34,750 nt of DNA from positions 1-34,750 of the forward strand of contig CALXNI010000090.1 of the NCBI GenBank assembly GCA_944389715.1. Reading direction: 5' to 3'. Numbering within the stretch: position 1 is the stretch's first letter; every line of letters starts with the position of its first letter. The notes under the pieces are model-generated. The model did no database searches. It was not told the DNA's origin and saw only the letters and a program-made list of their open reading frames with translations. Origin of the DNA: an uncultured Clostridia bacterium. Its GTDB lineage: Bacteria; Bacillota; Clostridia; TANB77; CAG-508. Positions 31,947-33,926 of the stretch are shown in pieces. Both the position numbers and the translations under genes were made by a program.

Positions 31947-33926
31947 ATGGATAAAGATAAAGGTAAAAAACGTATTGCTGAAGTAAAGAGAGTAACAGCA
32001 TATTATGCAAAAAAATAGTATGATGAGGATGGCCCAGAAATAGCAGATTTTGAATATGATATGCTCATGAATGAGCTTAAAAATTTAGAAAGAGAATATC
32101 CAGAATTTATATCAAAAGATTCTTTAACTCAAAAAGTTGGGGGAACAGTTAAGGAAGGTTTTGAAAAAGTAACACATATTGTACCGCTTCAAAGCTTGCA
32201 AGATGTGTTTTCTTTTGATGAAATATATAGTTTTGACGAAAGAATGAAAAAATTTGATAAAGATATAAAATATGTTGTAGAAACAAAGATAGATGGATTA
32301 TCAGTTGCTTTAGAATACAAAAATGGTGAATTTATAAAAGGCGCAACTAGAGGAAATGGACAAGTTGGAGAAGATATTACAGACAATTTAAAAACTATAA
32401 AAAACATACCTCAAAAATTAAAAGAGAATATAGATATAATTGTGAGGGGAGAAGTGTTTATATCTAAAAAGGACTTTGATGAATTAAATGAAAAACAAGA
32501 TGAAGAAAATAAATTTGCAAATGCAAGGAATTTAGCTGCTGGCTCACTTAGACAATTAGATAGTAAAATTACCGCTACAAGACCTTTGGACATTTATATT
32601 TTTAATGTTCAAAAAAGTGATACAATAAAATTTACATCACACTATGAGTCACTTGTATATTTGGAGAAATTAGGGTTTAATGTAAATCCAATAAAAGTTT
32701 TATGTAATAATATAGAAGAAGCAATAAAGGAAGTAGAAAAAATAGGAAACACAAGAGAAAAAATACCTTTTGGAATAGATGGAGCAGTTATAAAAGTAGA
32801 TGATTTAAATTTAAGAGAAGAAATAGGAACAACATTTAAAGTCCCAAAATGGGCAATTGCATATAAATATCCTCCAGAACAAAAAGAAACTATTTTAAAG
32901 GATATAATATGTAATGTTGGAAGAACAGGAGTTATTACACCAATGGCAATACTAGAACCAGTTATTGTTGCAGGATCTAAAATCTCTAAAACTACACTCC
33001 ATAACGAAGATTTTATAAAAGAAAAAGATTTAAAAATTGGAGACCATGTTCTAATACAAAAAGCAGGTGATGTTATACCAGAAGTTGTAAAAGTATTAAA
33101 AGAAAAAAGAACAGGAAAAGAAAAAGAATTCGAAATGCCAAAAAAATGCCCGGTTTGTGGCGCAGAAGCAGTAAGAGAAGAGGGAGAAGCGGCTGTTAGA
33201 TGCATAGGTGTTGAATGTAAGGCTCAAAATTTAAGAAATATAATTCATTTTGCTTCAAAAGAAGGAATGAATATAGAAGGATTAGGGGAAAAAATTGTAG
33301 AACAATTGTATGATAATGGATTAATAGAAACAATTGCGGATATATACTATTTAAAACAAAAAGACATAGAAAGTTTAAAAAAAGACGGAAAGAAATTTGC
33401 TAGTAATTTAATAGAGGCAATAGAAAAAAGCAAAGATAATGACTTAGATAGATTAATTTGTGCTTTAGGAATAAGGCATATAGGAACTAAATCTGCAAAA
33501 ACACTTGCAAAAAGATTTAAGTCAATTGATGGACTTACTAATGCAACGCTTGAAGAATTAATAATAACAGACGATGTAGGAGAAATAACAGCAAAAAGTA
33601 TATATGAATTTTTTAAACAAGAGCAAACTATTGATTTAATTAACAAATTAAAAAATGCAAATGTTAACATGAATTTAAAGGAAAATGAAAAAGCTGATAA
33701 TAGATTTGAAGGGAAAACGTTTGTACTTACAGGAACATTAGAAAAATACACTAGGGACGAAGCAAGTAAAATTATTGAAGACTTTGGAGGTAAAACTTCC
33801 AGTTCGGTTTCTAAAAAAACTGATTATGTTTTGGCTGGTGAGGAGGCAGGAAGCAAACTTACAAAGGCAGAGAGTTTAGGAGTAAAAATAATATCAGAAC
33901 AAGAATTTGAAAAAATGATAAAATAA
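31947..33926 (+). CDS. ligA: NAD-dependent DNA ligase with an in-frame TAG at codon 24 (32016-32018)
   Basis: An AGGAGG RBS precedes the ATG at 31947. Translation: [56 protein letters not shown]... It is in frame with the track ORF (32061..33926). It has the KIDGLS adenylation motif, a CPVCG..C Zn finger, HhH repeats and a BRCT domain (FVLTGTL). Total length is about 659 codons. Confidence 0.9.

Follow-up and report, generated by a model that had tools for sequence, protein, structure and literature searches.

Does a stop codon inside the reading frame of an essential gene tell of unusual translation in the organism that carries it, or only of the way in which its sequence was obtained? The question is raised by ligA, the gene of the NAD+-dependent DNA ligase, in a stretch of 34,750 nucleotides from an uncultured Clostridia bacterium (hereafter the window, i.e., the whole of the DNA that was analysed), where a TAG occupies the place of a conserved tyrosine. 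LigA is essential in bacteria, and residues of its domain Ia, among them Tyr22 of the Escherichia coli enzyme, are reportedly required for the reaction with NAD+ (Sriskanda & Shuman 2002). Moreover, several other genes of the window can be read through only if translation departs from the standard at CGG codons, a setting in which a further recoded codon might be readily accepted. The features that bear on the question are listed in Table 1.

An earlier note on this DNA, made from the letters alone, had described a gene with a ribosome-binding site and an ATG, interrupted by an in-frame TAG and otherwise written in one frame, and the sequence from 31947 to 32063 reads as claimed: 23 sense codons precede the TAG, and the frame continues unchanged to the terminal TAA (33926). 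HMMER alignment to solved LigA structures matched the translation with the adenylation domain of the E. faecalis enzyme (1TAE, E = 1e-87) and with E. coli LigA (2OWO, E = 6e-64). In the latter alignment residues 9-310 of the query correspond to residues 7-317 of the chain, and the offset of 2 places codon 24 on Tyr22, in agreement with the position proposed before; the TAG sits on the first Tyr of a conserved YY pair. The motif of the adenylation lysine (KxDG) is present as TKIDG, and the 659-aa product found in other assemblies of the species contains the Pfam domains Nlig-Ia, DNA_ligase_aden, OB_DNA_ligase, DNA_ligase_ZBD, HHH_2, and BRCT. The predicted product of the gene is an NAD+-dependent DNA ligase, LigA.

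Table 1 Features of the ligA region and in-frame CGG codons of the window
Feature	Position	Strand	Remarks
ligA, NAD+-dependent DNA ligase (predicted)	31947..33926	+	659 codons, codon 24 is TAG in the window; from translation
In-frame TAG, equivalent of E. coli Tyr22	32016..32018	+	Very probably a wrong base at 32018 (G for T)
AGGAGG, ribosome-binding site of ligA	31936..31941	+	5 nt 5' of the ATG at 31947
ATG of Met39	32061..32063	+	Earliest start codon 3' of the TAG
Eight window-private substitutions, all to G	31963..32043 (81 bp)	+	Comparison with same-species assemblies
pgsA, CDP-alcohol phosphatidyltransferase	31272..31890	+	Directly 5' of ligA; putative +1 shift at CGG 31866-31868
G+C-rich hairpin	31898..31930	.	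Perfect 12-bp stem extended to 15 bp, between pgsA and ligA
In-frame CGG	7324	+	cpaF
In-frame CGG	8866	+	tadB/C
In-frame CGG	18487	+	Large surface protein
In-frame CGG	22384 and 22637	+	spoIVA, two sites
In-frame CGG	30033	+	Histidine kinase
In-frame CGG	31866-31868	+	pgsA

The codon was followed in related species and in other assemblies of the same species. One genome per species was scanned for the relatives, which gave 80 gut Clostridia loci (e.g., from Clostridium sp. CAG:452 and Candidatus Scatovivens) with LigA identities of 68-90%, and codon 24 encodes Tyr in all 79 loci that could be anchored (TAT in 60, TAC in 19). Within the species, exact matches to the product of the response-regulator gene (30153-31166) led to 11 contigs from NCBI, ENA, and Logan that are 99.6-100% identical to the window. 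Four of them span the start of ligA, namely L081 (GCA_949292645.1), L082, L085, and L086 (one from NCBI, two from ENA, and one from Logan), and at 99.6-99.9% identity to the window all four have TAT at codon 24, i.e., the in-frame TAG is not reproduced in independent assemblies of the same organism. The gene is complete on L081, L082, and L085, where gene callers give a LigA of 659 aa. JGI metagenome contigs, searched with a degenerate 45-mer that fits both alleles, gave no match, and exact look-ups of the 621-aa (Met39) and 619-aa (Met41) LigA products and of the 219-aa pgsA ORF had no hits.

The TAG belongs to a run of eight private changes, all of them to G on the strand shown. At positions 31963, 31983, 31988, 31992, 32018, 32027, 32031, and 32043 the window has G, and the other assemblies agree on C, T, T, T, T, A, A, and T, respectively; the remaining 1.9 kb of ligA contain no private change. 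After further same-species contigs covering 2229-23874 had been added, 30,677 window positions were covered at least twofold, and the private differences outside the cluster came to five scattered sites and one divergent segment of 454 bp (2735-3188), with a background rate of 1.7e-4 private differences per bp. Against this background the Poisson probability of eight private changes within 81 bp is ~2.6e-20, and that of all eight being to G is (1/3)^8 = 1.5e-4 when the target base is assumed to be random. No chance expectation can be set for a lone in-frame stop, but the cluster of substitutions that surrounds it is far beyond chance. Seven of the eight changes, the stop included, are nonsynonymous, and the window LigA differs over its 659 residues from the products of L081, L082, and L085 only at residues 6, 13, 14, 16, 24, 29, and 33. 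Four of these residues are near-invariant among the related species (A6 in 76 of 79, L13 in 78 of 79, Y24 in all 79, and S33 in 77 of 79, with Thr in the other two); the changes ignore purifying selection. They are spread over the 81 bp without an obvious gradient in density, which we counted against an artefact.

Most of the remaining differences between the window and the other assemblies are ordinary polymorphisms, mainly transitions, that are common to subsets of strains. The divergent segment lies in a Cof-type hydrolase gene and has 27 private differences, with a mixed spectrum (window bases C 8, A 7, T 6, and G 6) in contrast to the all-G cluster; compared with the three more distant strains in which it is covered, it looks like an allele that has diverged or been recombined. 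Strain indels and substitutions also mark positions 21515-21680 of a gene (21462..21956) with near-tandem repeats of the form VSGIE/EEKVSxIDE, whose product has 164 aa in the window and 188 aa in L081 and L084. A repeat of ~110 bp occurs three times, at 5-134 (+), 2241-2364 (-), and about 33970-34095 (+), and holds two hairpins that are rich in G+C (GGGTCGCCG...CGGCGACCC and GGGTCGC...GCGACCC) in a genome of 27% GC; a search of the whole window, this repeat included, against Rfam at the gathering threshold gave no match. Agreement with L081 and L082 ends at 34095, immediately past the third copy, and from there the window continues with a gene like that of the CCA-adding enzyme where those contigs have an 81-aa ORF and dtd, which suggests that the repeat mediated a rearrangement or that the join is chimeric. 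All same-species contigs keep a single-module NRPS-like gene (23937-28190, 1417 aa, with condensation, adenylation, carrier, and reductase domains) between spoIVA and the histidine kinase/response regulator pair.

The cluster is situated where coverage or assembly is weak in other samples. In three of these a contig breaks off here, L084 at 31977, L083 at 31979, and the Logan contig L086 at 32063. The one that stops at 31979, within the cluster, is BRZ_IT NODE_1551, which has a k-mer coverage of 4.64 and over 29.5 kb shares 99.98% identity with the window. Several contigs of the species have coverages of 2.5-5.7 in their names.

Since four other assemblies of the species read a normal Tyr codon at this position, we consider the TAG to be, very probably, an error of base calling or assembly with a bias to G, and TAT (Tyr) to be the true codon. 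Of the three options left by the earlier note (an erroneous base, a recent nonsense mutation masked by read-through or a suppressor tRNA, and a recoding event), the erroneous base is strongly favoured and the other two are not borne out, because the TAG is private to one assembly, stands in a clustered and one-directional run of eight changes to G and is absent from the four assemblies and the 79 related species. As to the exact technical cause of the all-G changes, we infer, as the most likely course, that the assembler crossed a stretch of thin coverage by means of a single low-quality read or very few of them, at the spot where other assemblies of the organism stop; the uncertain bases of these poor reads would have become G, and one erroneous G, at 32018, would have turned TAT into TAG. 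Sources of such a bias are known: in two-colour Illumina chemistry a loss of signal is called as G, and some k-mer assemblers encode N as G (e.g., through the base2int macro of SOAPdenovo). The changes in the window resemble such G-biased short-read miscalls in that they are all to G on one strand, cluster within about one read length in a place of low coverage where contigs tend to end, and pay no heed to coding constraint. The likeness, either to two-colour miscalls or to N encoded as G, is one of signature only.

If the eight changes were instead real in the strain, they would make up a local cluster of mutations, one of which put a nonsense codon into ligA. The gene would then be either a fresh pseudogene or one whose function is kept up by read-through at a low level, by a suppressor tRNA-Tyr(CUA), or by a second ligase. 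The sequence as given does have a TAG, one base from TAT, and TAG is a rare terminator in the DNA of this species (one of 25 window ORFs and one of the 18 genes called on L081, a small sample in which ten of the latter overlap the window). Nevertheless, eight changes to G on the same strand within 81 bp, in a gene otherwise identical to those of conspecifics, are hard to reconcile with mutation, the more so as near-invariant residues besides the Tyr are replaced too and the position coincides with contig ends in other assemblies. Neither does the loss fit a ligase that is essential and in which Tyr22 and other Ia residues are said to be needed for NAD+. We find such a cluster very unlikely, and it is extremely unlikely that the Gs are real in a single strain and that the UAG is read there as Tyr or another residue by a suppressor tRNA or near-cognate read-through. 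Since the UAG takes the place of a Tyr codon and differs from UAU in one base, it resembles the case of amber suppression by E. coli supF (tyrT su3), a tRNA-Tyr(CUA), but here the UAG is not found again in conspecifics, TAG is a normal terminator of the clade, and a tRNA-CUA is missing from what was searched: ARAGORN found no tRNAs in the window and, in 50 loci, which are a small part of the genome, ordinary tRNAs and one tmRNA, none of them with a CUA anticodon. If true, read-through of UAG would sit in a lineage that already tolerates obligatory +1 shifts at CGG.

A reassignment of TAG to sense (Tyr, another residue, or pyrrolysine) throughout the lineage, as a companion to the anomaly at CGG, could draw on the non-standard translation of the genome and on the only TAG-terminated gene of the window, since this gene has a back-up stop. 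The earlier note had singled out this pilin-like gene (10890..11339), with a TAA 12 nt downstream, and it is indeed the one among 25 ORFs that ends in TAG, with an in-frame TAA three codons later. Yet the four conspecific assemblies have TAT where a reassigned codon should persist, and both that note's suppressor and its recoding event lose ground to the absence of a CUA tRNA from the loci just described, to a search for other in-frame TAGs and to a count of terminators. No other in-frame TAG occurs among the ~9,900 codons that make up the 25 ORFs of the window, ligA codon 24 being the only one in a recognisable gene, so that TAGs at conserved positions of several different genes are not found. 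Nor is TAG avoided as a terminator: of 834 long ORFs in the 80 related species 190 close with it, as do 18 of the 97 that come from the eight closest species, and in this species it also ends ylxR, as seen on L081, 41 nt 5' of infB. TAG terminators are rarer in this species than among the relatives, where they close 19-23% of long ORFs; in so small a sample, the difference may reflect only a lower GC content. An in-frame TAG within an essential conserved gene is shared with phages of code 15, in which TAG encodes Gln (Crassvirales and other gut phages, PMC9523058), and with pyrrolysine decoding. In such systems a genome contains numerous in-frame TAGs, situated at Gln or Pyl positions, together with a dedicated tRNA, unlike the single TAG of the window, which stands at a Tyr position of a bacterial chromosome in one assembly only. 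We give reassignment practically no credence, and the same holds for re-initiation at Met39, by which the cell would live with a LigA that lacks domain Ia. An ATG is present at 32061 and the 621-aa ORF that follows is intact; however, this route requires the TAG to be real, no purine run resembling a ribosome-binding site precedes 32061, conspecifics retain the full N-terminus, and a LigA devoid of Ia reportedly cannot adenylylate itself with NAD+. The start of the 621-aa ORF is only apparent and is made by the erroneous stop.

Other candidates were tried and set aside. Slippage or frameshifting on the run of seven A before the TAG is excluded by the frame, which is the same before and after it. 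Recombination with a relative was rejected because no relative has these Gs at the Tyr codon and an imported segment would not differ solely by changes to G, and mutagenesis of the DGR type because the altered bases include T and C in addition to A.

The CGG codons behave unlike the TAG, since each of them is reproduced in every assembly. At all seven in-frame CGGs in recognisable genes of the window the conserved protein is regained only by passing over the C and reading on from the next triplet (GGA at six sites and GGT at one), and alignment with relatives places a restored Gly at the shift in spoIVA and pgsA. Each of the seven sites has the identical sequence in all the same-species assemblies that extend over it (six assemblies in the case of pgsA), and the first site of spoIVA is common to Clostridium sp. 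CAG:452 and another MAG. The same pattern of shift at CGG is seen at L001:~4908 and L004:~2954. In a survey of the 80 related-species loci (1.37 Mb), in which each codon was classified, 40 CGGs fell at +1 frame junctions and 18 were ordinary in-frame codons, i.e., 69% of CGGs were at junctions, against 1.5% for other sense codons; the base 3' of CGG was A in 28 cases, T in 11, C in one, and G in none. The shifted product of pgsA ends in ...YVKNGKDLLKG with a TAA at 31888-31890, much as its relatives end in ...NGKELLKD, and the shift at 31866 gains further support from the hairpin between pgsA and ligA, as the unshifted frame would be translated through it. Conserved sites and restored conserved proteins are thus found together, as in programmed +1 frameshifting, and from these comparisons the CGG sites appear to be places of an obligatory +1 shift, in which either the C would be skipped or CGGN would be read as four bases. 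The earlier note had spoken of CGG recoding, and while the feature is genuine, its nature is that of +1 frameshifting and not of reassignment.

CGG is known to be unassigned or reassigned in low-GC bacteria such as Mycoplasma capricolum (Oba 1991), and reassignment or "uncertain" decoding of CGG has been described in Clostridia (PMC8629427, bioRxiv 10.64898/2026.04.02.715157). As in those bacteria, the clade studied here makes almost no use of CGG as an ordinary codon; unlike in those reports, an in-frame CGG moves the frame by +1 onto a Gly codon. A +1 shift at a poorly decoded codon is also seen in prfB (CUU-UGA-C) and in Euplotes, but the CGG sites lack the common slippery 5' codon of prfB: they are preceded in the window by TGC, AAT, CCG, GTT, CTT, CTT, and AAC, and in relatives by 22 different codons, and re-pairing of a slippery P-site codon in the +1 frame is not apparent at them. 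In the literature on CGG in low-GC Clostridia we found no description of frameshifting at this codon. These parallels concern CGG and have no bearing on the TAG.

The ligA TAG is a cautionary case, in which what looks like a nonsense codon, placed at a catalytic residue in an essential gene, is gone in other assemblies of the same species, and as a finding in its own right it has no biological significance. In a genome with a true oddity of translation, stops derived from errors can pass for further recoding. The CGG sites serve here as an internal control, as true recoding is reproducible between assemblies and across species and the TAG is not, and a comparison of assemblies gives a clean criterion for telling error-derived stops from recoding. 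It is the CGG phenomenon, rather than the TAG, that merits a study of its own, as potentially a new, clade-wide mode of decoding in these Clostridia and possibly one that has not been described before.
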